Positions 27,501 to 61,680 of a DNA stretch of 64,000 bases are shown here, one piece after another; position 1 is the stretch's first letter; the number at the start of each line of letters is the position of its first letter. The notes beneath the pieces are model-generated. The model was given only the letters and a program-made list of their open reading frames with translations. It ran no database searches and was not told the origin of the DNA. This DNA is from an uncultured Gammaproteobacteria bacterium (GTDB lineage Bacteria; Patescibacteriota; Patescibacteriia; CAZSQN01): contig CAZSQN010000002.1 in assembly GCA_964609095.1 (NCBI GenBank), forward strand, positions 152,066 to 216,065, in the 5' to 3' direction. The position numbers and the translations under genes were made by a program.

Positions 27501-27663
27501 ATAACTGATATTAGGTTTATGAAGAATTGTTTTATAAATTTAGCCAAAAATTTAGGTTTAAACTTTGCCAGTTATTTGTCATTCCCGCGAAAGCGGGAAT
27601 CTACGGGTTCAAATTCTGGATTCCCGCTTTCGCGGGAATGACATAAAAAACCCAATATCAGTT
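27501..27663. mobile_element. MITE-like 163-bp element, copy 1, 16-bp terminal inverted repeats AACTGATATTAGGTTT / AAACCCAATATCAGTT
   Basis: Seen directly. More than 95% identical to 37319-37478. Contains the palindromic core GTCATTCCCGCGAAAGCGGGAAT...ATTCCCGCTTTCGCGGGAATGAC (two GAAA/TTTC tetraloop hairpins). Lies 6 nt upstream of the start codon of the gene at 25253..27494. Confidence 0.75.
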
Positions 27664-27720
27664 ATGTCGGCATTTATAATATATTTTGTTAACCCGCTCG
27701 TCAATGGCTGATAGCCCAAA

Positions 27721-27756
27721 TTCAAACCCCCACGCCAATTATTGGCGTGGGGGTTT
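27721..27756. terminator. hairpin cccccacgccaat/attggcgtggggg followed by TTTT
   Basis: 13-bp stem plus T-tract on plus strand; lies downstream of the large surface-protein gene (minus) and could act bidirectionally. Confidence 0.4.
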
Positions 27757-27852
27757 TGCGAAGAAGCGTCTTTATCACGCCTCCCGGCATCCTGCTAAAT
27801 AATTAGTCCTTCGACTTTCACTCAGGACAAACCCTGAGCTATGCCGAATGGG

Positions 27853-30800
27853 TTAGTAGGAGAGCGTCTTACCGACAAGCGGCAAGCTGTCAACATCAGT
27901 CAGGTTGGTGATGTATTCATCAGACCACTGAACTGGCGACTGACCGCCGGTCGCGCCTGTCTGGATGCCCACCGACAAGGTGTCGTTGGCTCCAATGTCG
28001 CTGTTGGAAGTATCCAAAGTGACAATGACGGTGCGAGAGCTATTACCCGCGATTTCAAGGTCAGTGAGGTTTCCTTCAGTAAGCTGCGTGTCCTGGGCAA
28101 ATCCTCCGCCTGTGTGGTTCATCGTTGTGGTGGCAAGCAGGTTAGCCGCGTCAACTGTCTCTTTATAGATATTCATTACTGCTCTTGTGCCGCCAATCGG
28201 GAGCGAGATGCCGGATGAGTTCACATCAAGGTTCAACTGCTTCAAGGTGATAGTGTAACCGCCCGGACTGGTGTTAGTGAACACAAACTTGGCAACCGTT
28301 GCTTCAGAGCTCTTGGTCTGGAGTCCTGATGGAGCGTCAGAGGCGTGAGCAACCGTGAGCTTGGACTTGAGCACATCAAACACAACCGCTTTAGCTCCGC
28401 CGCCGGTAGTACCGGTTGTAGGACCGATTATCAAACCGGCAGTGGCTGTGGCTCCGCCTTGAGTAATCTTAATGCCCGAGCCCTTGCCTGTTGCTTCTAC
28501 CGCATCATTGAAGCCGGACGTCGCACAATCCCAGTCACCGGTTGAACCAACTGTTGCGTCGCCAGCGAGAGTTCTGCCGCATGGAGAACCTTCCGCAGCG
28601 CTGTCATGAACAGTGGTAGAAGCGCCACCCATCACAAAGAGACGGTGAGTAGAAGATGACTGTCCGCCGTCCGCAAATGGGGTAAGGTCAGCTTTAACCG
28701 TAAGGGTCAGGTTGCCTCCCTTTGGCACTATTAGTCCGCCGCCGGAAAGACCGGTAAGGTCAAATACCGCGAGCGGCACGCTGGTGTTGTAGGTTGTGGT
28801 ATCCAGCGAGGCAAGCGAGCCCAAAAGCGTTGAGCCGTTCCACAGCTTCACGTTCTTAAGAGTACCAGTGGAGTTAAACGGCACCGCGGTGTTAGTGGTC
28901 ATATCATCGGCAACCACAAGCTTGGTGACCAAGATGTCTTCAGCGTTGGACTCTTCAGCCAGTTTGAACTTGGCAAATACCTGTTCGGAAGAGCCAAGCG
29001 TTAGCTGGGAAGCGGCCGGATCGCCGGAAACAGAAGTCACGCGCAGCATTCCCTTAGTGGCAATGAAGAGATCCTGGAGCGAAACATCAGTGGTATAGCT
29101 TGTATCAGTTGAAGTGGTAACGCCGGTGGCAGTCACTTTGTCCGCGATAACTTCGCCGTTTACGTCATCAGTATTCACATTAGAAACAGCCGCCGTGGTG
29201 CTCTTAATGTCAGCATAGACATCAATAACTATTTGTTCACCAATGCCAACGCGAAGCGACGGCGATACGGTAAACTCGTAAGTTGTTGAGTCGGTGTCCG
29301 TAAGAGTGCCGACTGTTGTGCCGAGCTGGGTAGTGCCCTTCTTCAATTTCATATTGATGAAGTAGTCGGCAAGGGTCACAGTGTCGCTTGTTGTATCAAC
29401 GTCATCCTTCAAAGTAACGCCGGTGATATCCGATTCTTCAGCTCCGCCGGTAATGACAAACGAGCCAATGCGCACGCCGGTCAAGCCGGGCACGCCAAGA
29501 GGCCTGGCGGATGTGTAGCTGGCCAAGCTGGTATTCTTAGTGACAGTCAGAAGGCCAGAACCAACCGTTACTGTTCTGCCGGAAACCGCGGAAGTGCTAA
29601 TGGCCGTAAGCGAAGTGCGTCCTTTGGCGTTGGACGAACCAGCTACCAAAGCGGCGCTTAATGTTTCGCCGCCGGCAACTGTCGCGTCTGTCAAGTCAGC
29701 CCTGTATTCAAGCACTTTGGTTGTCCCGGCCGCAATGGTAAAGGTGTTGCCAAAGCTGAAGTCAGTGCCGGTTTCGCTCGTGTCATCGCAGTCATCAGTT
29801 GATTGCGTAGTGCCGACCTGCGAACCGCCAAGGGTAAGCTTGATGTTGTCAAGGTTGTTAGTGGTGTCAGAGCTGTTGCAGGAAGTGTCCAAAGTATCAA
29901 CTTGAACGTCTTCGCCGGCAGCAGTCAAATTCCACTTAGCCAAAAGCACATTGGTCGCTCCGTCAGGCACATTGCCGGCTGGAGCGTCCGGATGAATTTG
30001 GATGGTGAGCGAGCCAGTGTTGATGGTGGTCGCGCCTCCGGCTTGAGTTACGGTAAAAGCGGCGGAATCGCTGGCAAGCACGGTCTCAACATTGTAGTTG
30101 AGGTCCCAAGCCACAATATCGGTTGTGTTCTGCACCGAGAAGCGATAAGTGCGATTTGTTCCGCCTTTAATGTCGCCGCGAAGCGATAACTGCTTGGTTG
30201 TGCCCGAAAGCATCTTCAAGCCGCCATCAGCCATTCCGGAGAGATCAAGCGCAAGCTTGCCGTCGCCCAATTGCGCGGCTGTCGCGCCCAACTGCGTGGC
30301 GCCGTCCATCAGCTTGATGTTCTGAAGGTCGTCAGAATCAACCGAGCCAACATTGGTCAAGGTTACGCGCTTAACAAGCATGTTCTGGTCGTTGGCATCA
30401 AACTTAAAGCGCCAGAGCTCAAAGTTGTCTTGCGGGTCAACAGTTGTTGCCGCGCCCGGAGAAACGTTGGCAACTTCAACATAGCCAAGGTCAGTGACCG
30501 AAGCCACGGTGAATTGATTGCCGACTGCCGAGCCGGAAACCGATGAAGCGTCAGAAGTAACATCTGCCGAAGCCAAGCTCCAGGCAACTGTTTTTCCGGA
30601 AGTGGTGTTATTGTCAATATCCATCTTCAAGGTTACATCCTTTGAACCGCCAGCCGGAACAGTAAAGAGTCCGGAAGTATTTTCAAAGGTGGCTACCCCT
30701 TGAGAAAGCGACTGGTTTTGCGTCAGACGAGTGTCGCCGTCATAGAGGTAGAGCGCGTCAATGTCAGAATCGGCCGTAATGCCGGTCCTGCGAACCAAAA

Positions 30801-31533
30801 GTTTGGTGACTTTTGCCGCCGCGCCGCTTGAAGCAAAGCGCATCTTTAACACTACGGCTCTCTGCGAGCTGCCATTGGTGTCATTGTCAGAGTCAGCGAC
30901 AATGGAACCGCCGGCCGGACTGTCAGACGCCGCGCTCACTTGAAGCGCTCCGCCGCCAGCTCCGCCTTCGGCAAGTCCCTTGTCAGAGTTAATGGTTGTC
31001 GCAGAATCCATTTGCGCCGCTTTATCAAAATCGGATGCTGAACTAACCGCCGAACCAACAGTGTAGTTGGTGAAGAAAGCATCCGGTACATCGTCAATTT
31101 GCGTATTCCAATTCGCTCCGTAAAGCGAAGTAGCGACTGCCTCGGAGGCAACATGCCTCAAGACGCCGCCTTTTGCCACCGCGTAAACCTTGGGGTCAGT
31201 GGTGATTTTCACCATTTTGACGCCCGGGCGATAGGTGGCATTGCCGCCAATGGTGACCGCGGCCAATTCCGCATCGGTTACTGTTTTCACCGTGGAAAAG
31301 TCCGAGTACCATGTCTTGTATGTTTTTTCATTCGGGAATACGTAGCGCTTGCCATCCCCGCCGTAGTAATAAACGGCCGGGAGCGAGGCCTTAATCAAAT
31401 CACCGGAAGAAAGAGCAGCCGCTTTTGCCGTTAAAGGCACGATAAAAGTGGCAAGCCCAATTGACCAGGCAATGGTTGATACGGCCACGCCGATGTGGAG
31501 CGCCCGTTTCCCAATCTGTAACGTGTTAGTCAT
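27853..31533 (-). CDS. large secreted cell-surface protein, Ser/Thr/Gly/Asn-rich with repeated beta-sandwich-like modules (S-layer/adhesin-like)
   Basis: 1226 aa, N-terminal signal peptide (hydrophobic stretch ending TAKA/AA). Recurring module ..V.KLLV....DSDD...L.DG.TQLG. appears at least 5 times. Roughly 20 N-x-S/T sequons, very high T/S content. Confidence 0.65.
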   Translation of the reverse strand: MTNTLQIGKRALHIGVAVSTIAWSIGLATFIVPLTAKAAALSSGDLIKASLPAVYYYGGDGKRYVFPNEKTYKTWYSDFSTVKTVTDAELAAVTIGGNATYRPGVKMVKITTDPKVYAVAKGGVLRHVASEAVATSLYGANWNTQIDDVPDAFFTNYTVGSAVSSASDFDKAAQMDSATTINSDKGLAEGGAGGGALQVSAASDSPAGGSIVADSDNDTNGSSQRAVVLKMRFASSGAAAKVTKLLVRRTGITADSDIDALYLYDGDTRLTQNQSLSQGVATFENTSGLFTVPAGGSKDVTLKMDIDNNTTSGKTVAWSLASADVTSDASSVSGSAVGNQFTVASVTDLGYVEVANVSPGAATTVDPQDNFELWRFKFDANDQNMLVKRVTLTNVGSVDSDDLQNIKLMDGATQLGATAAQLGDGKLALDLSGMADGGLKMLSGTTKQLSLRGDIKGGTNRTYRFSVQNTTDIVAWDLNYNVETVLASDSAAFTVTQAGGATTINTGSLTIQIHPDAPAGNVPDGATNVLLAKWNLTAAGEDVQVDTLDTSCNSSDTTNNLDNIKLTLGGSQVGTTQSTDDCDDTSETGTDFSFGNTFTIAAGTTKVLEYRADLTDATVAGGETLSAALVAGSSNAKGRTSLTAISTSAVSGRTVTVGSGLLTVTKNTSLASYTSARPLGVPGLTGVRIGSFVITGGAEESDITGVTLKDDVDTTSDTVTLADYFINMKLKKGTTQLGTTVGTLTDTDSTTYEFTVSPSLRVGIGEQIVIDVYADIKSTTAAVSNVNTDDVNGEVIADKVTATGVTTSTDTSYTTDVSLQDLFIATKGMLRVTSVSGDPAASQLTLGSSEQVFAKFKLAEESNAEDILVTKLVVADDMTTNTAVPFNSTGTLKNVKLWNGSTLLGSLASLDTTTYNTSVPLAVFDLTGLSGGGLIVPKGGNLTLTVKADLTPFADGGQSSSTHRLFVMGGASTTVHDSAAEGSPCGRTLAGDATVGSTGDWDCATSGFNDAVEATGKGSGIKITQGGATATAGLIIGPTTGTTGGGAKAVVFDVLKSKLTVAHASDAPSGLQTKSSEATVAKFVFTNTSPGGYTITLKQLNLDVNSSGISLPIGGTRAVMNIYKETVDAANLLATTTMNHTGGGFAQDTQLTEGNLTDLEIAGNSSRTVIVTLDTSNSDIGANDTLSVGIQTGATGGQSPVQWSDEYITNLTDVDSLPLVGKTLSY

Positions 31534-31654
31534 AAATTATTATTGGGTTGTTTTTTATGAGAAGGTTAATTCCCTCTCATTTTTATTATCCGCGGAGCCG
31601 TCTTGGTTTCCCAAACGCCGACCTTTCTGCGCCTGCGGCTTATTAATAATTAAC

Positions 31655-31726
31655 AGCTGTTAGCTGTTAGCTTTTAGCTGTTAGAAGTTTTAAGCCCCTA
31701 AAAGCTATAAGCTACAAGCTAAAAGC
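31655..31726. repeat. tandem-heptamer hairpin, family B copy 1 (AGCTGTT/AGCTTTT arms vs AAAAGCT/ATAAGCT arms)
   Basis: agctgttagctgttagcttttagctgttag ... ctaaaagctataagctacaagctaaaagct; related copies at 38391 and 48287. Confidence 0.75.
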
Positions 31727-32899
31727 TTACGGGTTAATAATTCTTGGCGTTGAACTGGATTCGTCTGTTTTTATTTCATCAAAATTTTGCATTTGGAAAC
31801 TGGATGTAGCGCTTCCGTCTTGGCTTTGCGCCCGCACCTTAACTCCGTCTAAATTCAAGCCGCTTCCCTGGCCGGACGAACCTGAACCGGTCAGCGCCGG
31901 AGTTGAAGAATTGCCGCCGGAAGTAAGCGTAACCGTAACCGCCGTTACCGCGCGCACCAATTCCGTGCTTTCTTTAATCTTGCTTAAAGCCGAAACAAAA
32001 TCCCCTTCGGAAATCGCCTCGCGCGCTTCGCCGATAGCTGTTTTAACTTGAGCGGCAGATGACGGGGTTGAAGTGGCGGAAGAATTATCAACCATCTGCT
32101 CCGCTCTTTTTTCTATATCGTTGATTTTATTGGTTACCGAATCCTGGACCTCTTCCATTGATAAAACCGTGGAGCTGGAAGAAGTGTGCGCCACCACCAT
32201 TACTTCAACCGCCTTCACGCTCGCGTCTTCGGCAACTTCTTTTGCTCCCTGCACCATGCCCAGGGCCTCGCCTTCAGAAACCTTTTTTTCAACTTCTCCC
32301 AAAATCTGCTGGTGAACCTCGCTTTTAGCGTCAATTATTTTTGCCATCTGCACGACTTTTTCCGGCTCGCTTTTCGGGTCATCCAGATACTGGCTGGCTG
32401 TTTCCATTTCCTGTTTAAAGTCCTTCACGGCCTTGGCAATCCGGCTTACATTGTTTCCGGAATTGGAATCAGTAATTTTGGAAACCTCCTGCACGCGCCG
32501 GCCGGCAAACTCAATATGAAGTTCGGCTTTGGCCTCGGCATTGCTTGTAAGCCGCACCTGCGCCTCTTCGGTTATTCTTTTAAGGGGATAAAGCAGGTCG
32601 CCCGGAACGCTGTTAAGAGAAGCGGAAACAGTGGTCACGCTGCTGCCAAAAACAATGCCCCCGACAAGCACAATCACGGAAGCAACGCGACCGGCCACGC
32701 GCATATCGTCAATTGGCGCGAACGCGGCAACAACTTCTTTGGCGCGTTCAAGATATGAGAGAGGCCGCGGATTTGGTTCCACGGTATTTTTTACCTGCAT
32801 CATCAAAGTGCTTCTGGACGCCTCAACCCACTCTTTATTCGGCATTCCTAAATCACTTTTTCGCAGGTTCTTAAATTGTTCTTTTAACGCGTCTTTCAT
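31727..32899 (-). CDS. hypothetical membrane-anchored protein, probable anti-sigma factor partner of the upstream ECF sigma
   Basis: ATGA overlap with the ECF sigma gene; single predicted TM segment around residues 60-90; no recognisable catalytic motif. Confidence 0.4.
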   Translation of the reverse strand: MKDALKEQFKNLRKSDLGMPNKEWVEASRSTLMMQVKNTVEPNPRPLSYLERAKEVVAAFAPIDDMRVAGRVASVIVLVGGIVFGSSVTTVSASLNSVPGDLLYPLKRITEEAQVRLTSNAEAKAELHIEFAGRRVQEVSKITDSNSGNNVSRIAKAVKDFKQEMETASQYLDDPKSEPEKVVQMAKIIDAKSEVHQQILGEVEKKVSEGEALGMVQGAKEVAEDASVKAVEVMVVAHTSSSSTVLSMEEVQDSVTNKINDIEKRAEQMVDNSSATSTPSSAAQVKTAIGEAREAISEGDFVSALSKIKESTELVRAVTAVTVTLTSGGNSSTPALTGSGSSGQGSGLNLDGVKVRAQSQDGSATSSFQMQNFDEIKTDESSSTPRIINP

Positions 32900-33657: not shown

Positions 33658-33951
33658 ATGAACCAACCCGATAATGTAATAAGATTATCAATCAGCGAAG
33701 CAGGCCGGATTTTTGGTGTTAATCCGCAAACAATAAGACGGGCGATTAAAGCGCGGGAAGTGACTTATGTTGTGGTAAGGGGGCGCTATAAACTCAATTT
33801 TGAAAGTATTCTTAAATGGTCGCAAAAGCATGCCGGGGTTAAAAACAAACTGCAAAACCGCGGCATTGGGCAATTTGTTTCCGGTTGGAAAATAAACAAT
33901 CCCTTATACTCGCCAAATCCGGCTATTTTTAAAAAAACAAATGACAAATAA
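33658..33951 (+). CDS. excisionase-family helix-turn-helix DNA-binding protein
   Basis: LSISEAGRIFGVNPQTIRRAIKAREVTYVVVRGRY matches Xis/MerR-type HTH (TIGR01764-like) layout. Confidence 0.5.
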   Translation: MNQPDNVIRLSISEAGRIFGVNPQTIRRAIKAREVTYVVVRGRYKLNFESILKWSQKHAGVKNKLQNRGIGQFVSGWKINNPLYSPNPAIFKKTNDK

Positions 33952-34072
33952 AAAACGCTTGAGAGGTCTGGCATATAAACCAAAAAGAGGAGGAGGACTT
34001 CTTGGCAATACACCAAACCAATCAAGCGTTTTTTGTTAGTTTGACCTTACTATAAAAATCTATATTCGTCAA

Positions 34073-34226
34073 CCCCGCACATAACCCTGAACTCATTTAG
34101 GATTTCGCCAATTGTCATTCCCGCGAAAGCGGGAATCCACAATTGGCAAATTAATAATTTGAGCGCCTGGATTCCCGTTTACACGGGAATGACAGGCCAA
34201 AGTTTTTGTCAATTTTATGTGCGGGG
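34073..34226. repeat. REP-unit-bounded element (CCCCGCACATAA ... TTATGTGCGGGG) enclosing a copy of the ATTCCCGC palindromic core
   Basis: C form at 34073-34084, G form at 34215-34226, internal gtcattcccgcgaaagcgggaat...attcccgtttacacgggaatgac at 34114-34193. Lies between convergent genes. Confidence 0.7.
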
Positions 34227-35295: not shown

Positions 35296-35427
35296 CCCCG
35301 CACACAACTTGTTTAATCCAATCATATCACGAATGATATGCATTTAATTAACCAAGCCATGTTAATGATTTTTGTTTCTCATTAAGAAGAACATAAAATA
35401 TAAGCTATAAGCAGGTTGTGTGCGGGG
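35296..35427. repeat. REP-unit-bounded 132-bp element (variant arms CCCCGCACACAA / TTGTGTGCGGGG)
   Basis: Seen directly. Internal palindrome catatcattcgtgatatg. The 3' arm abuts the ATG of the HtrA-like gene. Confidence 0.65.
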
Positions 35428-37316: not shown

Positions 37317-37318
37317 AT

Positions 37319-37478
37319 AGCTGGTATTAGGTTTATAAAAAATTGTTTATAAATTTAGCCAAAAATTTAGGTTTAAACTTTGCCAGTTATCTGTCATTCC
37401 CGCGAAAGCGGGAATCTACGGGTTCAAATTCTGGATTCCCGCTTTCGCGGGAATGACAATGGAAACCTAATATCAGTT
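37319..37478. mobile_element. MITE-like 160-bp element, copy 2 (left TIR degenerate AGCTGGTATTAGGTTT, right TIR AAACCTAATATCAGTT)
   Basis: More than 95% identical to copy 1 over the interior. Begins 2 nt after the start codon of the AI-2E gene (on its upstream side). Interior has TTGGCT-N18-TTATAA promoter-like spacing facing that gene. Confidence 0.75.
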
Positions 37479-37546
37479 AATAATAATTTAATGATACCAA
37501 AAATCAACTATTAGTCAAACGGTTTCCAACTTGCTATAACAGATAT

Positions 37547-38383: not shown

Positions 38384-38390
38384 AATAACG

Positions 38391-38450
38391 AGCTTTTAGC
38401 TGTTAGCTTATAGAATTTCCTATAAGCTATAAGCTATAAGCTATAAGCTA
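38391..38450. repeat. tandem-heptamer hairpin, family B copy 2
   Basis: agcttttagctgttagcttatag ... ctataagctataagctataagctataagct between tmRNA and infC. Confidence 0.7.
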
Positions 38451-38456: not shown

Positions 38457-39008
38457 ATGAGAATTTCCAGAAGAAAACGATTTGTAAAACCGGATGTTCC
38501 GCACTATCGCGTCAATGAGCAGCTGCGGCTAATACCCGAAGTGCGGATAATTGATGAAAATGGCGTTCACATTGGAGTAATGCCAACCGACCAAGCGCTA
38601 AAACTGGCATTAGAGCGCGGATATGATTTGGTTGAAGTTTCGCCAAAAGAAACCCCTCCCATCGCCAGATTGCTTGACTTCGGACAATTCAAATACGAAA
38701 AAGAAAAAGAAGCGCGCAAGCAGAAAGCGCGTTCGCACAATGTGGAGGTTAAAGGCGTGCGGCTTTCTTTGCGCATCGGTGCCCACGATATGGAAGTGCG
38801 GCGCGAACAAGCCAAGCGATTTTTGGAAAAAGGAGACAAGGTTCAGATAGAGATTGTCTTGCGCGGACGCGAACGGCAATTTACCGACATAGCCAAGGGG
38901 GTTATGGACAAATTCATGGAATTGGTTAAAAATGATTTTGACATTGCGGTTGAGCAGCCGTTTGCCAAACAAGGCGGCCGGCTGACAATGGTCATCGGAA
39001 GGAAATAA
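38457..39008 (+). CDS. infC: translation initiation factor IF-3
   Basis: IF3 N- and C-domain motifs (RVNEQLR..VRIID..G...GVM; KVQIEIVLRGRE). True start may be a non-ATG codon nearby. Confidence 0.85.
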   Translation: MRISRRKRFVKPDVPHYRVNEQLRLIPEVRIIDENGVHIGVMPTDQALKLALERGYDLVEVSPKETPPIARLLDFGQFKYEKEKEARKQKARSHNVEVKGVRLSLRIGAHDMEVRREQAKRFLEKGDKVQIEIVLRGRERQFTDIAKGVMDKFMELVKNDFDIAVEQPFAKQGGRLTMVIGRK

Positions 39009-39010
39009 AT

Positions 39011-39084
39011 ATAGGGTATAGGGTTTAGCGTTTAGGGTTTAGAAAAATTCACTGAACGCTATACGCTAACCGCTGAACGCTAAA
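39011..39084. repeat. tandem-heptamer hairpin, family C copy 1 (GTTTAGC/GTTTAGG arms)
   Basis: gggtttagcgtttagggtttag ... cgctatacgctaaccgctgaacgctaa; fills the infC-rpmI intercistronic gap. Confidence 0.7.
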
Positions 39085-39088
39085 ATCT

Positions 39089-39283
39089 ATGAAACTAAAA
39101 ACCCAAAAAACCGTTGCTAAAAGATACAGAATCACCAAAAGCGGGAAGATTATGCGCAAAACCTCCGGGCAGGACCATTTTAACGCGCGCGAATCAGGCA
39201 ATGTAACGCGGGCCAAACGTTCCGACGCTCCCGCGCACCAAACAGATTTGAAATCAATTAAACAATATATACCGTATCGGTAA
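39089..39283 (+). CDS. rpmI: 50S ribosomal protein L35
   Basis: MKLKTQKTVAKRYRITKSGKIMRK... Confidence 0.85.
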   Translation: MKLKTQKTVAKRYRITKSGKIMRKTSGQDHFNARESGNVTRAKRSDAPAHQTDLKSIKQYIPYR

Positions 39284-39287
39284 TTAA

Positions 39288-39356
39288 AGGGTAGAGGGTT
39301 TAGCGTTTAGGGTTTAGGCAAAAAAATCTAACCGCTAAACGCTAACCGCTAAACGC
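39288..39356. repeat. tandem-heptamer hairpin, family C copy 2
   Basis: gggtttagcgtttagggtttagg ... ctaaccgctaaacgctaaccgctaaacgc; fills the rpmI-rplT gap. Confidence 0.7.
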
Positions 39357-39364
39357 TATTATTT

Positions 39365-39709
39365 ATGCCGCGAGTCAAACGAGGAACGCATAGGATAAAA
39401 AGACGCAAAAACATCTTAAAACGGGTAAAGGGCTACCGCTGGGGCAGAAAGAGCAAAATCACCCTGGCCAAAACTGCGGCGCTTAAAGCCGGCCGCTATG
39501 CTTATCGCGACCGTCGGCGTCTAAAGCGCGACAAGCGCTCTCTTTGGATTGTCCGGCTTAACGCCGCCTTGCGCGAACAGGGAACGCACTACGCGCCGTT
39601 TATCCATCAGCTTAAAACCGCCAATGTGCTTTTGGACAGAAAAATCCTTTCCGAACTTGCGGCGCATTACGGTCCGGTATTCAATGAGATATTAAAACGG
39701 GTAAAATAA
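39365..39709 (+). CDS. rplT: 50S ribosomal protein L20
   Basis: MPRVKRGTHRIKRRKNILK... Confidence 0.9.
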   Translation: MPRVKRGTHRIKRRKNILKRVKGYRWGRKSKITLAKTAALKAGRYAYRDRRRLKRDKRSLWIVRLNAALREQGTHYAPFIHQLKTANVLLDRKILSELAAHYGPVFNEILKRVK

Positions 39710-47224: not shown

Positions 47225-48280
47225 TCACCTTCTTGGCAAGAGTCCTTTTGCCGCCAGCAGTTCCGCGTTTAATATTGAACCTCCGGCCGCGCCGCGAATG
47301 GTATTATGAACCAAAAGCGTGAATTTGTAATCCAAAACATTATCCGGCCGCAAACGGCCGATAACCACGCTCATCCCATCGCCCTCATTCCTGTCTTTTC
47401 GCGGCTGAGGCCGGTCATCCTCTTGGCGCAAAACAAGACAATGCTTTGGCGCGCTTGGCAGATTAAGTCCGAAAATAGACGGAACAAATTCAGAAAACGC
47501 GCGGCGCGCTTCTTCTATGGTCGCTTTGCGCTCAAATTCCGCGCTGACGCATTCCGTATGCCCGTCGCGCACGGCCACGCGATTGCAGTGCGCCGATATT
47601 CTAAACTCCGCCGGAATAAATCCTGAAGGCGACAATCCGCCCAAAATTTTTCTTGGCTCCGATTCCACTTTTTCTTCTTCGCCGCCGATATAAGGAATGA
47701 CATTATCCAGAATATCCATAGAGGCCACGCCCGGATAACCGGCGCCGGAAAGCGCCTGCATCGTCGTGACTATAACTTTTGTTATTTTAAAATTATCGTG
47801 CAGCGGCTTTAACGCCATAACCAGACCGGTTGTGGTGCAGTTGGGATTGGTAATGATAAACCCGGACGAGCCGCGGCGCTGCTTTTGCAATTCCAATATC
47901 TCCAAATGCTCCGGATTAACCTCCGGCACAAGCAGAGGCGCATCAACATCCATCCTGTGATTTTTTGAATTTGAAAGCACGGCATATCCGGCTTGCGCGA
48001 ATCTTTCTTCAATCTCTCCGGCAACGGAGGCGTCTAAGGCGGAAAAAAGCGCGTCGCAGGGAAGATTGGAATAAACATCGCTTACGGCCATGCCTTTAAC
48101 TTGCTCCGGCATTGGCTCGTCCAATACCCATTTTGTCGCTTCGGCATAAGATTTTCCGGCCGAGCGTTCAGATGCGGCAAGAGCGGTTAACTCAAACCAA
48201 GGATGATTTGACAATAATTGGACAAACCGCTGTCCGACTGCGCCGGTCGCGCCTAAAATTCCGACACGATACTTTTGCAT
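47225..48280 (-). CDS. asd: aspartate-semialdehyde dehydrogenase
   Basis: VGILGATGAVGQRF Rossmann, active-site Cys context SGAGYPG..CTTT. Confidence 0.85.
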   Translation of the reverse strand: MQKYRVGILGATGAVGQRFVQLLSNHPWFELTALAASERSAGKSYAEATKWVLDEPMPEQVKGMAVSDVYSNLPCDALFSALDASVAGEIEERFAQAGYAVLSNSKNHRMDVDAPLLVPEVNPEHLEILELQKQRRGSSGFIITNPNCTTTGLVMALKPLHDNFKITKVIVTTMQALSGAGYPGVASMDILDNVIPYIGGEEEKVESEPRKILGGLSPSGFIPAEFRISAHCNRVAVRDGHTECVSAEFERKATIEEARRAFSEFVPSIFGLNLPSAPKHCLVLRQEDDRPQPRKDRNEGDGMSVVIGRLRPDNVLDYKFTLLVHNTIRGAAGGSILNAELLAAKGLLPRR

Positions 48281-48286
48281 AAACTA

Positions 48287-48351
48287 AGCTGTTAGCTGTT
48301 AGCTTTTAGCTGTTAGAAGTTTCGTGACCCCTAAAAGCTATAAGCTAAAAG
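48287..48351. repeat. tandem-heptamer hairpin, family B copy 3, occupying the entire hom-asd intercistronic space
   Basis: agctgttagctgttagcttttagctgttag ... ctaaaagctataagctaaaagctaaag; begins 6 nt from asd ATG and ends at the hom stop. Confidence 0.75.
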
Positions 48352-49386
48352 CTAAAGTGCGCCCAGCAGCCGAAGAATGTCTCCCATCATCCCCTGCGCC
48401 GTCACTTCCGCTCCGGCTCCGGGCCCGCGGATAATGAGCGGATGGCGAAAATATCTTTTGGTGCGGATAACGGCCATATTTTCCGGGCCGGAAAGAGTGG
48501 CGAGCGGATCGCCGGAGGCGAGCGGCTCTATGGCGACGCGCGCGCCAAAGGGAGTGGCTGTCACCGCATATCCCAGTTTTTCATTGCGTTTGTATTTATA
48601 ATCCTCTTCCCGCAGATTTTCCAAAAATTCTTTTATCGGCGCTTCTTTAAGCCCATCCGGAACAAGCGATTCGGATTGAACCAGTTCGGAAGGCAGTTCC
48701 GCGCCAAGCGCGCGCGCCAAAATCAGCGCTTTTCTTTTCACATCGGCTCCGGAGAGGTCATCGCGCGGATCCGGCTCGGTATATCCGAGCTTGTGCGCCT
48801 CGCTTACGGCTTCGGAAAAAAGTTTTCCGGAAGAAACTTCGTTCATTATATATGAAAGCGTACCGGAAAGCAGTCCGCGAATATCAATAATCTCATCGCC
48901 GGAAGCGCGCAAACGTTTGATGGTTGAAATAATCGGCAATCCGCCGCCCACCGTCGCCTCATAACGAAAGTTGCGCGTCAAATAAAATTTCTTGCATTCC
49001 TCATACGGACCGGCCAGCGGCTTTTTGTTGGCCGTCACAACCGCCGCGCCGCCGTCAATAATTTTGTTCCAAAATAAACCAGTTTCGCCTGCCGTGGCAT
49101 CAACGATAAGAAGGTTGTTTTGATTAAGCGACAAAACGCTCTTGGCCAATTCTCCCAAATCTTTATTCGGCAAACTTTGCGGATGCGATGATAAACTGCG
49201 TTTTAGAACAATCTTTTGATAATCTTGCAGAGAAGTTTGCTCGTCTAAAATATAATTCTTGCTGTCGGCAATTCCAGCCAATCTGAACTTAATATCCGAA
49301 CCAAGGCCCGAGAGCTGTTTAAGAAAAGAGTTCCCCACGCCGCCAATGCCCAACAAAAATAAACTTGCGCCGTTCATACGGGGCAT
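48352..49386 (-). CDS. hom: homoserine dehydrogenase
   Basis: LLGIGGVGNSFLKQL NAD-binding N-terminus; HDH catalytic-domain texture. Confidence 0.8.
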   Translation of the reverse strand: MPRMNGASLFLLGIGGVGNSFLKQLSGLGSDIKFRLAGIADSKNYILDEQTSLQDYQKIVLKRSLSSHPQSLPNKDLGELAKSVLSLNQNNLLIVDATAGETGLFWNKIIDGGAAVVTANKKPLAGPYEECKKFYLTRNFRYEATVGGGLPIISTIKRLRASGDEIIDIRGLLSGTLSYIMNEVSSGKLFSEAVSEAHKLGYTEPDPRDDLSGADVKRKALILARALGAELPSELVQSESLVPDGLKEAPIKEFLENLREEDYKYKRNEKLGYAVTATPFGARVAIEPLASGDPLATLSGPENMAVIRTKRYFRHPLIIRGPGAGAEVTAQGMMGDILRLLGAL

Positions 49387-53152: not shown

Positions 53153-53655
53153 TTGCTCTAACGATTGCCTTTTTCTTTTTCGCTCTGCTTTGCGGGTTGG
53201 CTATGCGCCAAGAACCGCAAAAAGGCACGGTCTTGAACACGCTGGTCTTCGACCCTCTGATTCTGATTGTTTCCGGACTTGCCCTGGTTTTTGCGCTACT
53301 GCGGATTGCTCCGGCTAAAAATGGCCCCGCATTCAGAAAGAGACGGACGGTCATCAGAATCGTCTGCCTTGGCTTCATGGTCGCCTTCTGGACCGGCGCG
53401 GCCATGTACTATTTCGGAGTTTTGGAAAGTCCCTACCACACTCCGGGCAATGACTTTGCCTGGAACGGTTACCTGGATCTTCTGGGCCTCAAGGTCATGG
53501 ATACGGATACGCCCACCTATTACTCGTGGTGGAAGAACATCATCGCCCTGCTCCTTTTCGCAGTTCAGCCCGCTTTCTTTTGGCTTGGCTACCGCCTTGG
53601 TTTCACCATTGGCGGATTCCGGGACTTCTCGCTTTGGACTCGCCCGAAGAGATAA
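53149..53655 (+). CDS. hypothetical integral membrane protein
   Basis: 4-5 hydrophobic helices, ATGA-coupled to upstream SDR gene; last 14 codons lie inside direct repeat DR1. Confidence 0.45.
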   Translation: MIALTIAFFFFALLCGLAMRQEPQKGTVLNTLVFDPLILIVSGLALVFALLRIAPAKNGPAFRKRRTVIRIVCLGFMVAFWTGAAMYYFGVLESPYHTPGNDFAWNGYLDLLGLKVMDTDTPTYYSWWKNIIALLLFAVQPAFFWLGYRLGFTIGGFRDFSLWTRPKR

Positions 53656-53745
53656 AAATGAAAACCCCTCCGATGGACATCGGAGGGGTATTTTGTTGGC
53701 GGGATTTATTCTTGGATGTAGCGCTCTCTCCAAGCGGACACATCT
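53612..53745. repeat. 134-bp direct repeat DR1 (identical copy at 56084-56217)
   Basis: Verified by eye over its full length. Contains the bidirectional terminator cccctccgatggacatcggagggg plus the 3' ends of both flanking convergent genes. Confidence 0.85.
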
Positions 53746-54383: not shown

Positions 54384-54393
54384 TGCTTTTGCA

Positions 54394-55929: not shown

Positions 55930-56083
55930 GATGTTTCTCCTTTGTTATGTTTTTAACGAACTGCTTCTGCTCTCGATTTATCATGATTTCACCTTGCTGT
56001 CAATATTTCTAAATGTTTCCACATATTGCGCCGGAGATATTTTAGTTCAAAGAAGTACGCATGACGAATAAAATGCAGTTTTA

Positions 56084-56217
56084 GCGGATTCCGGGACTTC
56101 TCGCTTTGGACTCGCCCGAAGAGATAAAAATGAAAACCCCTCCGATGGACATCGGAGGGGTATTTTGTTGGCGGGATTTATTCTTGGATGTAGCGCTCTC
56201 TCCAAGCGGACACATCT
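56084..56217. repeat. 134-bp direct repeat DR2
   Basis: Identical to DR1; overlaps the last 13 codons and stop of the metzincin gene at 56178. Confidence 0.85.
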
Positions 56218-57382: not shown

Positions 57383-57946
57383 TTAATCAGTACACGGTTC
57401 CGCGCACCAAGGTATCAGAAACGGCGATTTGGCTTCCAGCACGCTTCTTGCCCGATCGCGCGCGATCCAGCCCCTTATGTCTTCCTGCCGCAAACATTGA
57501 TGCGCGCGGCGCATAATCGGGCTCATTACCGAATCGGTGTCTTGGTCCGTATGGCGCACTCCCAGCTGGTGTCCAATCTCGTGAGCGGTGATGTTTATAA
57601 GCTTCATGTCGTCTTTAGAAAGACACTCGGTAAAAATATCTATTCTCCCGCCCCTGTAGGCATGGCCGAGAAGGGAGCTCCCGTTAGCGCGCCGGCAAGA
57701 CGGCGTTCTATTGGCGCAGACGCTCACATCCCGGCAAAATTCATCAGCGGCCAGCACGCAATTTACTCCGACAACCCTCCAAAAATTACAGCCGATAAGC
57801 AACGTTTCCGGCGCCAAATCGCTGTCAGGATAAACATACAGTTTAAGCGTCCACCTTTGGCGGATTTTGTAACGGCCGCATTCCGCATCTTCGCCGCGGC
57901 AGGCCGAAAATAAAAAAAGAACGGCAAATAACATTTTCCTTTTCAC
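57383..57946 (-). CDS. metzincin-like zinc metalloprotease lipoprotein (single module)
   Basis: Lipobox LFSAC; HEIGHQLGVRH ... SVM Met-turn. Confidence 0.6.
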   Translation of the reverse strand: MKRKMLFAVLFLFSACRGEDAECGRYKIRQRWTLKLYVYPDSDLAPETLLIGCNFWRVVGVNCVLAADEFCRDVSVCANRTPSCRRANGSSLLGHAYRGGRIDIFTECLSKDDMKLINITAHEIGHQLGVRHTDQDTDSVMSPIMRRAHQCLRQEDIRGWIARDRARSVLEAKSPFLIPWCAEPCTD

Positions 57947-57976
57947 CTTTCTCTCCTTTTTTACTTACAAAAAACT

Positions 57977-58420
57977 TTATTCCTCTTTATCTTGATTTAA
58001 TCTCGCGGCAAGGCGAAACTCCAGTTTCCTCAAACCCCACAAAATCAAAAGCGTTAAAATAACGCTGGCTATGGCAATGGAATAAAGGCGCAGACCCACG
58101 GCCGCTCCGATGGCGGCCGTAATCCATAGGCCGGCGGCGGTGGTCAGCCCGCGCACCTTGCCGCCCTGGACAATAATCAAGCCGGCGCCAATAAAACCAA
58201 CGCCGACAACAATCTGCGAGAGCACGCGCGAAGGGTCAAAATAAGGAGAAGTAGAAAACGCCTCCGACAGAACGGAAAAAAGGCAAGCCCCCAAGGCCAC
58301 TAGGGCGTAAGTGCGCAGCCCGGCTGATTTGCCGGTCCATTCGCGTTCAAAACCGATAATACCGCCGAGCAGAGCGGCGATAACAAGCTGTCCTATGATT
58401 TGGTAATCGGGAAAAAACAT
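57977..58420 (-). CDS. MgtC/SapB family membrane protein
   Basis: QLVIAALLGGIIGFEREW signature of the MgtC family. Confidence 0.8.
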   Translation of the reverse strand: MFFPDYQIIGQLVIAALLGGIIGFEREWTGKSAGLRTYALVALGACLFSVLSEAFSTSPYFDPSRVLSQIVVGVGFIGAGLIIVQGGKVRGLTTAAGLWITAAIGAAVGLRLYSIAIASVILTLLILWGLRKLEFRLAARLNQDKEE

Positions 58421-58427
58421 ATTTTTA

Positions 58428-59066
58428 TTATATCAACCCGTAAACAAAATTTACAAATCCTCTAAAGAGCAAACTGAATATGCCAAGCCCAAAAAAAGAA
58501 TCAAGCAAAATTATTGCCAAAAGAATCAGCGGGCCTCTTGTCTCCATCGACAGCATCATTGGCGCGTACTTTGGAGAAGAAAGAACCGCAAAAAGAAGCT
58601 TTGACCCGTCAAGAGGCGGCACGGGAATCAGATTAAAAAGCAGCAGAATGAGATTGATGGTCAAAAATAAAAATAAAAACTGGATTAAAAGATTGGAAAC
58701 GGACAAATCGGTTGTCAGCCGCAAAGTTTTTAAAACCAGCACTGAGATGCCGGCAAAAAAAAGATTTGCCGCCGGGCCGGCAAGCCCCACCAGCGCCGGT
58801 CCCCATCTTTTGACTGAAAGATTATAAGGATTAAACGGCACCGGCTTGCCCCAGCCAAAACCGACAAAAATAAGCGCCAAAAATCCAAGAAGGTCTATAT
58901 GCGCCAAAGGATTAAGAGTGAGGCGGCCGGAGTTCCTGGCCGTAGAATCGCCCAAAACAGTGCTGGCGAGCGCGTGCGAGAATTCATGAACCGTCAGCGC
59001 CGTCAAAATGGCAATGACCCAGACGACAAAACCAAGCGGACTTTCCATTAAAAGATTAAAAGGCAT
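58428..59066 (-). CDS. site-2 protease family (M50) zinc metalloprotease
   Basis: HEFSHAL HExxH in TM helix plus NLIPVPPLDG (LDG motif). Tool ORF's 29-aa prefix is repeat readthrough; real ATG at 59066 is preceded by TTATGTGCGGGGT. Confidence 0.75.
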   Translation of the reverse strand: MPFNLLMESPLGFVVWVIAILTALTVHEFSHALASTVLGDSTARNSGRLTLNPLAHIDLLGFLALIFVGFGWGKPVPFNPYNLSVKRWGPALVGLAGPAANLFFAGISVLVLKTLRLTTDLSVSNLLIQFLFLFLTINLILLLFNLIPVPPLDGSKLLFAVLSSPKYAPMMLSMETRGPLILLAIILLDSFFGLGIFSLLFRGFVNFVYGLI

Positions 59067-59067
59067 A

Positions 59068-59167
59068 CCCCGCACATAAATTTGTTTAATAATTATACAG
59101 ACAGCATTATAATTTCTCTTTTTATTTTCCCGCACCCCGTTTACAATAAACAAATTTATGTGCGGGG
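59068..59167. repeat. 100-bp cassette bounded by CCCCGCACATAA ... TTATGTGCGGGG, paralog of 4740-4835
   Basis: Shares TIRs, the conserved core tgcgggaaaataaaaa and an attataatg box with the other copy, in the same orientation relative to the downstream start codon. Confidence 0.75.
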
Positions 59168-59236
59168 CATAACATTGACATTATATCACAGCTTTGGTAA
59201 GCTAATCCCATAATTTATCTTGATATATCTATCCTT

Positions 59237-59413
59237 ATGGCCCGAATTTGCGAACATTGCGGCCGCCGTCCGCTTAAAGCGGTTTCCAGATCGCATTCAA
59301 ACATCGCCACCAAACGCAGGCAAATGCTTAATCTCCAGTGGAAAAGATTAGATGGTGAACGAGTGCGCATTTGCGCTAATTGCATTAAAACAATGAATCG
59401 CGTCAGAATCTAA
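59237..59413 (+). CDS. rpmB: 50S ribosomal protein L28
   Basis: MARICEHCGRRPLKAVSRSHSNIATKRRQMLNLQ... (58 aa; below the ORF-track length cutoff). Confidence 0.8.
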   Translation: MARICEHCGRRPLKAVSRSHSNIATKRRQMLNLQWKRLDGERVRICANCIKTMNRVRI

Positions 59414-59436
59414 TCCCTCGGCCGCGGGATAAACAG

Positions 59437-59460
59437 CCCCTCTTTTTAAGAGGGGTTTTA
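59437..59460. terminator. bidirectional intrinsic terminator cccctcttttt aagagggg + TTTT
   Basis: Between convergent rpmB (+) and dsbB-like (-) genes. Confidence 0.65.
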
Positions 59461-59461
59461 G

Positions 59462-60031
59462 TTACTGCTTTTCGTCCCGAAATGATTTTTTATGCGCGGC
59501 CATTAAAAGAATGATAAGCAAAAAAGCCGTAAGCATCATCATCGGAATAGTCACATAACCAAATTCCAATGTCAGGCGCTGGGAACATGAAACGGCGTTC
59601 GCGGAACACGAAAAAAGCGAATGTCCTCCAAATTGGAGATATTGATGATAGGCGGAAAAAATCGCGCCAATGCCGGAGAGAGCGATAGAATAATTAGCAA
59701 CCCCGCTATCCTCTTTGCGCAAAGCCATTCCCAAAATAATCACTTGCGGATAAATAAAAATCCGCTGTATCCAGCACAATTTGCACGGCGCAAAACCGAC
59801 AATCTCAGAATAATATAAGCTGCCGGCAACTGACGCAAGCGCGATTAAAAAAGAAAAAAGAACGGCGTTTTTGCCCAAAAAACGAAGAGCTTCACGGCCG
59901 TCCTTAAAATAATTCGCGTCTTGCTTAAAATATAAAATTATAAAAACAACCAAAAACGCGACAATTAAAATATCTCCGGCAACAGTGAGGGAGGACAATA
60001 TCTTGGTGGTGGTTTGCGCGGCTCCGTCCAT
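59462..60031 (-). CDS. DsbB/BdbC-family disulfide bond formation protein
   Basis: CKLCWIQR motif in first extracytoplasmic loop, 4-TM layout, second Cys pair CS..C. Confidence 0.7.
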   Translation of the reverse strand: MDGAAQTTTKILSSLTVAGDILIVAFLVVFIILYFKQDANYFKDGREALRFLGKNAVLFSFLIALASVAGSLYYSEIVGFAPCKLCWIQRIFIYPQVIILGMALRKEDSGVANYSIALSGIGAIFSAYHQYLQFGGHSLFSCSANAVSCSQRLTLEFGYVTIPMMMLTAFLLIILLMAAHKKSFRDEKQ

Positions 60032-60037
60032 AAATCA

Positions 60038-60424
60038 TTATTTTTTCTCGGGAAGAGCGCAGCCGGTTTTCTCGCTTAATTTTTCCAAAGAAACCTCACC
60101 GCCCAATCTGCCGCCGTCGCTAAATTCCCAAGTGGGATAACCGTCTATATTTTTTTCTTTGCAAATTTCTTTTTGACCGCGGCCATCCGGAGTGGAACAT
60201 TCAACATACGGCAAAAACTTTTCCGATTTTCCAAACATCTTTTTCTGATTCTGGCAATGCGGGCACCAAAACGCGCCGTAAAAAACCGCCGATTTGTCTT
60301 TAAGACATTGGCTAAAACCATCCAATTCTCCAGGACGGCTTCCCGCGTATGCCCATAAACCGACCGCGGCGGCAAAAATAATTGCCACAGATACCCAAGT
60401 TAGAATTTTTTTATTAGAGTTCAT
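60038..60424 (-). CDS. membrane-anchored thioredoxin-fold thiol-disulfide oxidoreductase (DsbA-like partner)
   Basis: N-terminal TM anchor, WCPHC active site. Confidence 0.7.
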   Translation of the reverse strand: MNSNKKILTWVSVAIIFAAAVGLWAYAGSRPGELDGFSQCLKDKSAVFYGAFWCPHCQNQKKMFGKSEKFLPYVECSTPDGRGQKEICKEKNIDGYPTWEFSDGGRLGGEVSLEKLSEKTGCALPEKK

Positions 60425-60431
60425 AGTTAGA

Positions 60432-60506
60432 TTGGTCGGGCCGCGGGGAATCGAACCCCGGCTGCAAGACCCCCAGCCTCGCGTACTACCATTATACTAC
60501 GGCCCG
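60432..60506 (-). tRNA. tRNA-Pro (anticodon GGG), CCA encoded
   Basis: Reverse-strand CGGGCCG...acceptor, T-arm CGGGGTTCGATTCCCCG, anticodon stem cgagg/tcttg (with GU pairs), loop CTGGGGG. Confidence 0.75.
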
Positions 60507-60873
60507 ATGAGTGAGAGGAAAACAAAACATTTTTGCTTTCCCGAACGAAGATGGGCCGAATCAAGTGAAGCGCAGATACGGCCCGCAATTATAAAACTTG
60601 CTTATTTTAACAAAAAATTGCCCATTAGGCAACTGAAATAGCTTCATCGCAATTAACCGACAATGGTTCTGGCTTATACCCAAGTGGGTGCCCTCATCCG
60701 CATTTCCACAGAAATACGGCGATATAAGGCGTTCCGCCCGAGGCGGAACACTCCGCGCCGCCTAATGCCTCGCCGAAGCGTTGAACATTAAGCAACAAAC
60801 GGAGCTCCCATTATATTTGGTTGTCCCAAAACCAAACACCGGAATTGCCAATGAAGCCAATTTCATTATACCC

Positions 60874-61578
60874 CTATTCAGCCACTCTGACCATGTCCGC
60901 AAATTTTTTCATTATTGTCTCAGCTTCTGGCGAGGGCGCGAGGGTATCCGCCCACTCCGGTTGGCCGCTGTCTTTGAAACGGTATTTTAAAATTTCTTCG
61001 TAATCCTCCTTGCTTCGCTCGGGATGAAATTGTACGCCGTAAACATTAGCGCCAATCCTACATGCCTGCACGGGGCATAATCTGCTTTTGATTAAAATTT
61101 CCGCGCCGGATGGCAGAGCTTCCACTCGGTCATGATGCGCCGATTGCGCGTTAAATTTTTCCGGCAGATGGCCGAATAAAGGATCGTTTTTGGCCGCGGG
61201 CAAAAGTTTCATCTCGCGCGTTCCATATTCTTTTGACGCGTCATCGCGGATAACTTCTCCGCCGCAAACACGGGTAAGCAATTGGTGGCCGAAACAGATT
61301 CCCAAAATAGGAATATTTTTTGCCAGTGCGACTTTAATAATTTTAACAAGTTCTTCCAATTTTGGAACCATAAGTCCTGAATCATTTTTAGCCACTCCGT
61401 ATTTGCTCCCGCCGATAATCAGCGCATCAGCTGACGCGACGCCATCTTTTGTTCCATCGGCAAAAAAATCAATTGATGCCAGTTCTTCCGCAGATATTCC
61501 CAAAGAGCGCAAAAACGACTTGCGTTCAAAATCAAGTTCCTTTTTTTCTTCTCGTATTTGCAGCAAACAGATTTTCAT
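60874..61578 (-). CDS. class I glutamine amidotransferase-like protein
   Basis: GICFGHQLL catalytic Cys and GVQFHPE His motifs. Confidence 0.8.
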   Translation of the reverse strand: MKICLLQIREEKKELDFERKSFLRSLGISAEELASIDFFADGTKDGVASADALIIGGSKYGVAKNDSGLMVPKLEELVKIIKVALAKNIPILGICFGHQLLTRVCGGEVIRDDASKEYGTREMKLLPAAKNDPLFGHLPEKFNAQSAHHDRVEALPSGAEILIKSRLCPVQACRIGANVYGVQFHPERSKEDYEEILKYRFKDSGQPEWADTLAPSPEAETIMKKFADMVRVAE

Positions 61579-61615
61579 CTCGTTAGAAGTTTAAGTAATA
61601 ATTATCAATTTATTT

Positions 61616-61680
61616 GTCATTCCCGCGAAAGCGGGAATCTGCGGGTTCAAATTTTGGATTCCCGCTTTCGCGGGAATGAC
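61616..61680. mobile_element. degenerate copy of the MITE-like element core (ATTCCCGC double-hairpin), TIRs eroded
   Basis: gtcattcccgcgaaagcgggaatctgcgggttcaaattttggattcccgctttcgcgggaatgac with a partial right-end match aaaaaacctaag; 38 nt upstream of the GATase start codon. Confidence 0.65.

Follow-up and report, generated by a model that had tools for sequence, protein, structure and literature searches.

A MITE-like element with an NTS/SRM hairpin dimer at its centre, apparently inserted between host promoters and start codons in a genome of the candidate phyla radiation

The stretch of DNA analysed here, 64,000 nt from positions 152,066 to 216,065 of contig CAZSQN010000002.1 (assembly GCA_964609095.1) and referred to below as the window, comes from a groundwater bacterium of the candidate phyla radiation (CPR) and contains four palindromic doublets, which we have named copies A to D. 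Copies A and B lie at the centre of a short non-coding element bounded by terminal inverted repeats (TIRs), and copy D resembles a remnant of the same element. We propose, with a probability of roughly two in three, that this is a two-layer element resembling a miniature inverted-repeat transposable element (MITE), in which a dimer of the NTS hairpin, or of its degenerate form, the Ssn-related motif (SRM), is enclosed by a lineage-specific TIR carrier, was inserted between a host promoter and the ATG, and is read by a factor of this lineage. In the first layer, the 65-nt centre would be a head-to-head dimer, with the tags outside, of the site that small GIY-YIG nucleases of the Ssn type bind and cleave as single-stranded DNA (ssDNA). 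In the second layer, a carrier of approximately 98 nt with 17-bp TA-ended TIRs would have been copied together with the dimer, giving rise to A, B and the older D. The palindrome family itself is known already, as dRS3, as the repetitive extragenic palindrome (REP) CGTC-1, and as NTS/SRM with its Ssn partner. The novelty is modest and consists of the CPR host, a clear case of a dimer enclosed by a TIR carrier for which insertion can be demonstrated, and two insertions equidistant from a -10 box.

The TIR consensus, TAACTGATATTAGGTTT, was matched exactly four times in a scan of the window, with 0-2 mismatches, and these four matches are the ends of A and B. By chance, 0.09 matches per window would be expected, and four were reached in no shuffle. 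A TA is present at both outer ends of A and of B. Counting this TA, the repeat is 17 nt long, and 16-17 of the first 20 positions are complementary. The family was also recovered by a repeat search of the window. In a global alignment A and B are identical at 152 of 163 positions (93.3%). The 65-nt core is the same in both (65/65), and all 11 differences fall in the non-core sequence (87/98; 89%), which forms the carrier and is distributed asymmetrically around the core (76 + 22 nt).

An earlier interpretation, made from the letters alone and referred to here as the sequence-only reading, had described a MITE-like unit in four copies. On re-reading of the sequence at all four places the copies were located as claimed, and the MITE-like character of A and B holds, as both are non-coding, TIR-bounded, 162-163 nt in length, and apparently inserted relative to orthologous loci. 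Three of the four copies do lie shortly upstream (1-37 nt) of a minus-strand ATG (ATGs ending at 27496, 37316 and 61578). The identity of the full copies had been placed above 95%, which is higher than the measured value, and the terminal inverted repeats, reported as 16 bp, measure 17 nt when the terminal TA is included. The further claim of recent mobility appears overstated, with the non-core sequence 11% divergent between A and B versus 0 substitutions in 21 kb between near-identical assemblies of the host, i.e., the window and GCA_016181485.1 (L001 in our numbering of comparison loci).

Copy D retains an intact doublet. Its spacer is identical to that of A at 15 of 17 positions, the bases adjoining the core are also kept, and 37 nt separate the core from the GATase ATG. 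We read it as a probable old relative of the 163-bp element, partly deleted or decayed. Both C and D had previously been regarded as decayed partial copies devoid of TIRs. For D the first part of this description stands, but half a TIR has been kept. For C it does not, because the spacer and the flanks differ from those of A and B. Copy C, in which one arm has three mismatches to the 20-nt core hairpin, is an independent doublet in another palindromic carrier and not a degenerate form of the 160-bp element. Because A, B and D share carrier sequence, the unit that was copied would be the whole TIR-bounded element. Since dimers also occur independently (copy C, and a locus from another genome, L109, described below), the dimer probably entered the carrier before the carrier spread.

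Comparison with related genomes bears directly on the question of insertion. The neighbouring genes are CPR-like, and the AI-2E transporter protein encoded beside B is identical to one in L001 (contig JACOZF010000008.1), which is annotated as Candidatus Uhrbacteria. On these grounds an origin in the Neisseriaceae, which the dRS3-like hairpin had suggested, was rejected. Contigs of related Uhrbacteria in which gene order is kept, and whose AI-2E proteins share 69-83% amino acid identity with that of the window, served as comparison loci. At site B, between smpB and the AI-2E gene, the intergenic region is 230 nt here and, as annotated, 27, 181, 112 and 78 nt in the relatives, none of which has the element. 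The corresponding lengths, again as annotated in the relatives, are 356 nt versus 202 and 119 nt upstream of the Wzy_C gene (site A), and 211 nt versus 65 nt (L210) upstream of the GATase gene (site D). At site C, the next conserved sequence in L127 follows almost directly after the stop codon. Neither an NTS arm nor a TIR was found in approximately 60 kb of the relatives' DNA. Since the relatives keep synteny and lack the element at each of the four sites, the four doublets and the carrier were gained in this lineage as insertions. The absence of the sequence from orthologous positions thus bears out the mobile-element part of the sequence-only reading, and argues for insertion and not for an inherited regulatory region. 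The genes downstream of A and B are intact and of full length compared with their orthologues, and the position of the AI-2E start codon is unchanged.

Table 1. Positions in the window of the elements, their component parts, and the adjacent host promoters
Feature	Position	Strand	Description
Element A	27502..27664	-	163 nt; long arm towards Wzy_C/TPR gene (ATG end 27496); absent at orthologous site in L127, L128
Gene-proximal TIR of A	27502..27518	+	TAACTGATATTAGGTTT, 0 mismatches
Promoter-proximal TIR of A	27648..27664	-	TAACTGATATTGGGTTT on minus strand, 1 mismatch
Core of A	27578..27642	.	Inverted NTS/SRM arms 27578-27601 (+) and 27619-27642 (-); spacer 17 nt
Element B	37318..37479	-	162 nt; oriented towards AI-2E transporter gene as in A (ATG end 37316); absent in L122/L127, L123, L124, L126/L128
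Gene-proximal TIR of B	37318..37334	+	TAGCTGGTATTAGGTTT, 2 mismatches
Promoter-proximal TIR of B	37463..37479	-	0 mismatches
Core of B	37393..37457	.	Inverted NTS/SRM doublet, arms 37393-37416 and 37434-37457
Copy D	61579..61702	-	Intact doublet, arms 61616-61639 and 61657-61680; half TIR TTAGGTTT
Copy C	34114..34193	.	NTS/SRM doublet, arms 34114-34137 and 34170-34193; spacer 32 nt
Carrier of copy C	34073..34226	.	154-nt unit bounded by CCCCGCACATAA...TTATGTGCGGGG; whole unit absent in L127
Host promoter of Wzy_C gene	27676..27704	-	Sigma-70-like TTGACG-17-TATTAT, 27704->27676; ends 11 nt before A
Host promoter of AI-2E gene	37491..37518	-	TTGACT-16-TATCAT with extended-10 TG, 37518->37491; ends 11 nt before B

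Three indels distinguish the window from L001 (31601, 32411-32433, and 37416-37442). The last is a 27-nt deletion in L001, by which the copy B dimer loses its spacer and half of one arm, and the 23-nt indel at 32411-32433 splits a DUF5667 gene in L001. These differences reflect either variation between strains or faulty assembly at repeats. Five Logan contigs (L205-L209; five runs, SRR12113385-SRR12113433), which are independent short-read assemblies of the source samples, all break exactly at the outer edge of an NTS arm of copy D (61616-61684), as would be expected if this sequence were present in many copies in those metagenomes.

The arms of the core correspond to a hairpin described in other bacteria. 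Each core arm has the form (T)GTC-ATTCCCGC-GAAA-GCGGGAAT-C, and the 20-nt hairpin ATTCCCGCGAAAGCGGGAAT occurs eight times in the window, as four inverted pairs, compared with a chance expectation of 0.01. The dRS3-type palindrome ATTCCC-N8-GGGAAT is found in all eight arms, seven of which match ATTCCCGCGAAAGCGGGAAT exactly and one with the three mismatches mentioned for copy C. Relative to the 28-nt NTS consensus, CGTCATTCCCGCGMAVGCGGGAATCYRG, two arms have one mismatch and five have two, at position 1 and at position 28; the first base is T, not the consensus C, in all arms of the window. Seven of the eight arms match the degenerate SRM pattern, for which shuffles give 0.42 matches per window, and the arrangement GTC-palindrome-C is present in 8/8. 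The dRS3 palindrome has been known since about 2000. The NTS encompasses the dRS3 of Neisseria, and its degenerate form was designated SRM (Chenal et al. 2025, PMC11893778). SsnA, a GIY-YIG protein of 94 amino acids, binds the NTS only as ssDNA, with cleavage occurring a few nucleotides upstream. The three bases preceding the palindrome are important for this cleavage, and the C following it is important for binding. In the same study, a survey of RefSeq reference and representative genomes, allowing at most one mismatch, was reported, and ssn genes were often flanked by the motif across many phyla (PMC11893778). The hairpin called CGTC-1 REP forms mostly head-to-head dimers and has no dedicated transposase, and in H. 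neapolitanus all of its dimers are embedded in a longer palindrome (Di Nocera et al. 2013, PMC3733652). By sequence, the core palindrome is a doublet of these already described NTS/SRM (dRS3, CGTC-1 REP) hairpins. The internal palindrome of two GAAA hairpins had been correctly recognized in the sequence-only reading, which missed its identity with the known motif.

An exact 23-mer was searched in one genome per species and matched at least 120 loci. They belong to the Alpha-, Beta- and Gammaproteobacteria, Dehalococcoidia, Terriglobia, Nitrospirota, Bacteroidota, Planctomycetota, a Rickettsia endosymbiont, and several CPR groups. When the matches listed are aligned on the motif, the conserved part is only (C)GTCATTCCCGCGAAAGCGGGAATCCAG and the flanks are random. 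Among these same matches, 53 of 81 close arm pairs are inverted '+ -' doublets with spacers of mostly 14-60 nt, an architecture shared with the cores of the window, where the spacers are 17 and 32 nt. They also include five GIY-YIG open reading frames (ORFs; Pfam PF01541) near arms, three of them directly flanked by arms, one on a CPR (Peribacteria) contig. At L109, a dimer with the same spacer sits in unrelated flanks, and at L013 an NTS dimer is nested in a longer palindrome, similar to the case in the window. A palindrome from a CPR bacterium is thereby tied to a pair of motif and nuclease that was characterized only in 2025, and the motif reaches several CPR lineages.

Because the core is invariant while the carrier drifts, and because the motif is invariant across phyla, the comparison suggests that the hairpin arms are constrained and presumably still recognized in this lineage by a factor specific for their sequence. 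At a carrier divergence of 11%, the probability of no change in the 65 core positions is 0.888^65, or approximately 4e-4, and in copy D the arms are intact and the flanks largely decayed. A homologue of Ssn is the obvious candidate for the reader of the arms.

The position of the insertions was examined with a sigma-70 consensus scan on the gene strand. Just outside and upstream of each full element the scan identified a putative host promoter with 10/12 consensus matches (Table 1). Both elements start exactly 11 nt downstream of a -10 hexamer, and the gap that remains to the ATG is 5 nt for A and 1 nt for B. No gene-facing site inside A or B passes the thresholds of the same scan. In L127 and L128 a promoter-like site is found at the corresponding position for sites A and B, 5-13 nt upstream of the ATG, as annotated or as judged likely. 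In the orthologues of site A it directly follows the same terminator hairpin, and at site B a TGnTATCAT-like -10 box can be seen by eye in 4/5 orthologous loci and is partial (GGC-TATCAT) in L126/L128. As the promoter-like sites of the orthologues end 5-13 nt from the ATG, the host genes would have been ancestrally leaderless or nearly so, and the element was inserted into the short stretch that separates the -10 box from the ATG.

The sequence-only reading had proposed that the element supplies promoters, i.e., that it is a MITE whose gene-proximal arm carries an outward promoter driving the Wzy_C, AI-2E and GATase genes. We consider this unlikely. Copies A, B and D do share one orientation with the long arm beside the ATG, and a 165-nt structured leader on a near-leaderless gene might be harmful unless a start site forms near the ATG. 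Candidate hexamers can also be named, TTGGCT-18-TTATAA in B and TAATAT in the TIR of A, 11 nt before the ATG, and the Correia elements of Neisseria are known to create promoters at their ends (PMC2649163). However, the candidate hexamers differ between A and B (TTCATA vs TTATAA; TAATAT vs TAATAC), so that the TTGGCT-N18-TTATAA spacing previously ascribed to the interior of the element is present in B and not in A. Moreover, the strongest sites lie immediately upstream of both copies and none inside passes the scan, and orthologues devoid of the element keep promoter-like sites. The host promoters have survived intact beside the insertions, and promoter donation is unnecessary and unsupported.

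As ssDNA, element A is predicted to form one long hairpin (-43 kcal/mol, z = -10.8). For the RNA leader containing element A the predicted energy is -76 kcal/mol (z = -12.8), and the predicted fold consists of a 25-bp perfect stem formed by the arms and a TIR stem ending a few nt before the AUG. A transcript from the host promoter would carry this structured leader of approximately 165 nt. The leader hairpin would act after initiation, by RNase III processing or by masking the start site, in analogy to Correia elements, which are often located between promoter and gene, are co-transcribed, and have a hairpin that can be cut or protected by RNase III (PMC2649163). The Wzy_C and AI-2E genes offer a clean natural test of the effect of a 25-bp hairpin leader on expression in a CPR bacterium. 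It is very improbable that the element is not mobile DNA at all and instead represents a conserved cis-regulatory leader RNA (riboswitch-like or attenuator) of several genes. Its location upstream of three genes, in their 5' leaders and always in the same orientation, and its very stable predicted fold would fit such a role, but none of the related genomes examined has it in those leaders, and the part that is conserved best is a DNA motif which occurs across phyla in every genomic context. Furthermore, Rfam has no family for the element. At gathering thresholds only tmRNA and tRNA-Pro were returned for the window, and at permissive E-values only generic long-hairpin models (miRNA precursors, FtrB, NrrF), all far below threshold.

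In the two-layer reading, the element would most likely be mobilized in trans, by a DDE transposase that targets TA and has its gene elsewhere. A conventional transposase acting on TIR and TA is favoured because cutting by Ssn a few nt from an arm would not release the 76-nt arm of the carrier. A different proposal, to which we attach a low probability, is that the mobile unit is the NTS dimer itself, behaving like a REPIN and mobilized by an ssDNA nuclease of the Ssn type. In that case A, B and D would have arisen by site-specific insertion of the dimer into a palindromic target that already existed, and not by transposition of the whole 163-bp unit. The occurrence in other genomes of dimers that have the same spacer but unrelated flanks (e.g., L109), the different carrier of copy C, and the core identity of 100% vs 89% in the arms of the carrier are all consistent with it. 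So are the H. neapolitanus dimers, always found in one type of palindrome (PMC3733652), and the resemblance of the NTS-ssn-NTS arrangement to an insertion sequence, which was suggested by the authors of the Ssn study (PMC11893778). Nevertheless, the 98-nt carrier is also absent at the orthologous sites and must have been inserted too, the window holds no copy of the carrier free of a dimer, and Ssn has been demonstrated only to cut ssDNA (PMC11893778). In addition, no Ssn gene was seen in the window, in 10 kb to its right, or in L001. We also regard as improbable, though worth stating, that the composite is a live Ssn/NTS ssDNA mobile system, which would be excised and re-inserted via its internal dimer and would enter transiently single-stranded DNA at active promoters. 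Both intact copies lie at approximately +5 relative to the expected start site, and A, B and D are in one orientation. If this were true, Ssn nucleases would acquire a transposase-like role, which has been proposed earlier without demonstration, and Ssn/NTS mobility would explain why REPs of the CGTC type have no known transposase.

Several points weigh against the two-layer element with a TIR carrier. As the sequence-only reading had stated, there is no transposase in the window; gene tables and Pfam scans gave none, including none of the Y1/HUH type. Only two intact copies and one decayed copy are present in approximately 74 kb. Searches of the JGI metagenome and IMG/VR collections gave no further copy, and a metagenome scan for both TIRs at a distance of 110-140 nt gave 0 matches. 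A base-exact empty site was not found among the relatives, whose leaders (at most 83% AI-2E amino acid identity) are not alignable base by base, and for this reason the TA may be either a target-site duplication or part of the TIR. The identity of the core could come from gene conversion between copies instead of constraint. A hidden Markov model built from the five GIY-YIG ORFs beside arms detected no Ssn-like gene in the 64-kb window, in the 10 kb to its right (L211), in L001, or in the relatives' loci, and the link to Ssn in this genome rests on motif identity together with conservation of the arms. Finally, the hexamers named above for A and B leave room for a weak internal promoter.

Exact matches to the 17-mer TIR numbered 74 + 2 singletons (metagenome + viral) in what was a low-sensitivity search, which is about chance by a rough estimate. 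The longest extension of a TIR match (23 nt; L182) was rejected, having no further similarity. The only correctly ordered pair of TIRs (L137; 3.7 kb apart, 3 mismatches) was rejected as well, since it encloses ordinary Bacteroidota-type genes and no transposase.

With respect to known systems, the arms agree with the published NTS/SRM in being a 28-nt oriented hairpin with a GTC tag, the structure ATTCCCGCG-loop-CGCGGGAAT, and a trailing C followed by Y-R. The distribution is similarly broad, and the matched loci include Povalibacter, Devosia, sphingomonads and Rickettsia, all of which are named in that paper (PMC11893778); small GIY-YIG genes are likewise found beside arms in the matched loci. 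The arms of the window differ in beginning with T, in numbering only eight in 64 kb, all in dimers, in their CPR host, in the enclosure of the dimer by a TIR carrier, and in that no ssn gene accompanies them in the window, L001 or L211. With CGTC-1 REPs they share a CGTC/TGTC-tagged palindrome, mostly head-to-head homodimers with spacers of 20-100 bp, nesting in a longer palindrome as in H. neapolitanus, and the lack of a known dedicated transposase (PMC3733652). The carrier in the window is, in contrast, longer (98 nt, 76 + 22), has clean 17-bp TA-ended TIRs, and can be followed as an insertion by comparison with related loci.

Correia repeat enclosed elements (CREE) are about 100-160 bp long with a TA duplication at the insertion site. 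The TIR of the window element, TAACTGATATTAGGTTT, is unrelated to the 26-bp Correia TIR, the host is a CPR bacterium and not Neisseria, and neither a site for integration host factor nor an end-promoter is evident in the window element. Correia elements are not known to contain a dRS3/NTS dimer. The likeness lies in a non-coding, TIR-bounded unit placed between promoter and gene (PMC2649163). The window element is an analogue of CREE, not a member. REPINs are inverted REP doublets which form one long hairpin and replicate as a unit; they carry GTAG tags and depend on the REP-associated tyrosine transposase (RAYT) of the HUH type. The core in the window is also an inverted doublet, but its tag is TGTC (CGTC type) and no RAYT was seen in the window. 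The Neisseria intergenic mosaic elements (NIMEs) are likewise modules organized around inverted dRS3 repeats. There the dRS3 is on the outside of a repeat unit, whereas the dimer in the window is on the inside.

The genes of the window comprise a polysaccharide/glycosyltransferase cluster, smpB and tmRNA, infC-rpmI-rplT, threonine-pathway genes, and a sigma-70 gene; no GIY-YIG gene is present in it. Four tandem paralogues of 740-815 amino acids, each combining Wzy_C (O-antigen ligase-like) with a C-terminal TPR, occupy 18299-27496, and of the four only the first has the element in its leader. Approximately 1.5-3 kb past the right edge of the window lies a competence gene of the ComEC type (DUF4131 + Competence domains; L211 7454-8995). 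This neighbour is relevant because the uptake of DNA as single strands is the process on which Ssn/NTS acts in Neisseria, where the pair restricts the entry of transforming ssDNA.

The ends of the copy C carrier belong to a second repeat family, in which units of 30-154 nt have a 12-nt inverted repeat, CCCCGCACATAA...TTATGTGCGGGG, at their ends. Units are found at 4740-4835, 16853-16882, 16887-16998, 17081-17176, 34073-34226, 35296-35427, 59068-59167, 61740-61773 and 63110-63234. The short ones are plain terminator-like hairpins, and the long ones hold variable 'loop' DNA, with a common interior in those at 4740 and 59068. The CCCCGCACATAA motif is missing from most of the relatives' loci, one pair being present in L124. 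Beside the copy C carrier, at approximately 33940-34037 on the minus strand, lies a candidate small RNA found in four related genomes. It is predicted to form a rod-like hairpin of approximately 90 nt, preceded by a promoter TTGACG-17-TAAGGT (34072->34044), with an invariant CU-rich apical loop, UACUCCUCCUC, that resembles an anti-Shine-Dalgarno sequence, and with a T-run. RNAalifold gives 34 pairs, 11 of them with compensatory changes, and there is no match in Rfam.

A Ham1-like gene and an AAA-like gene of 511 amino acids are flanked by two direct repeats of 137 nt (53609-53745 and 56081-56217), which share 99% identity at a distance of 2472 nt. Short intergenic repeats are found at 31648-31727, 38384-38449 (directly after the tmRNA gene), 48280-48359, 39006-39091 and 39281-39367; one family consists of AGCTnTTAGCT / AGCTATAAGCT words and another of GGGTTTAGCGTTTAGGG words, and they are apparently hairpin-forming. 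Several distinct small intergenic repeat families are thus present within 64 kb.

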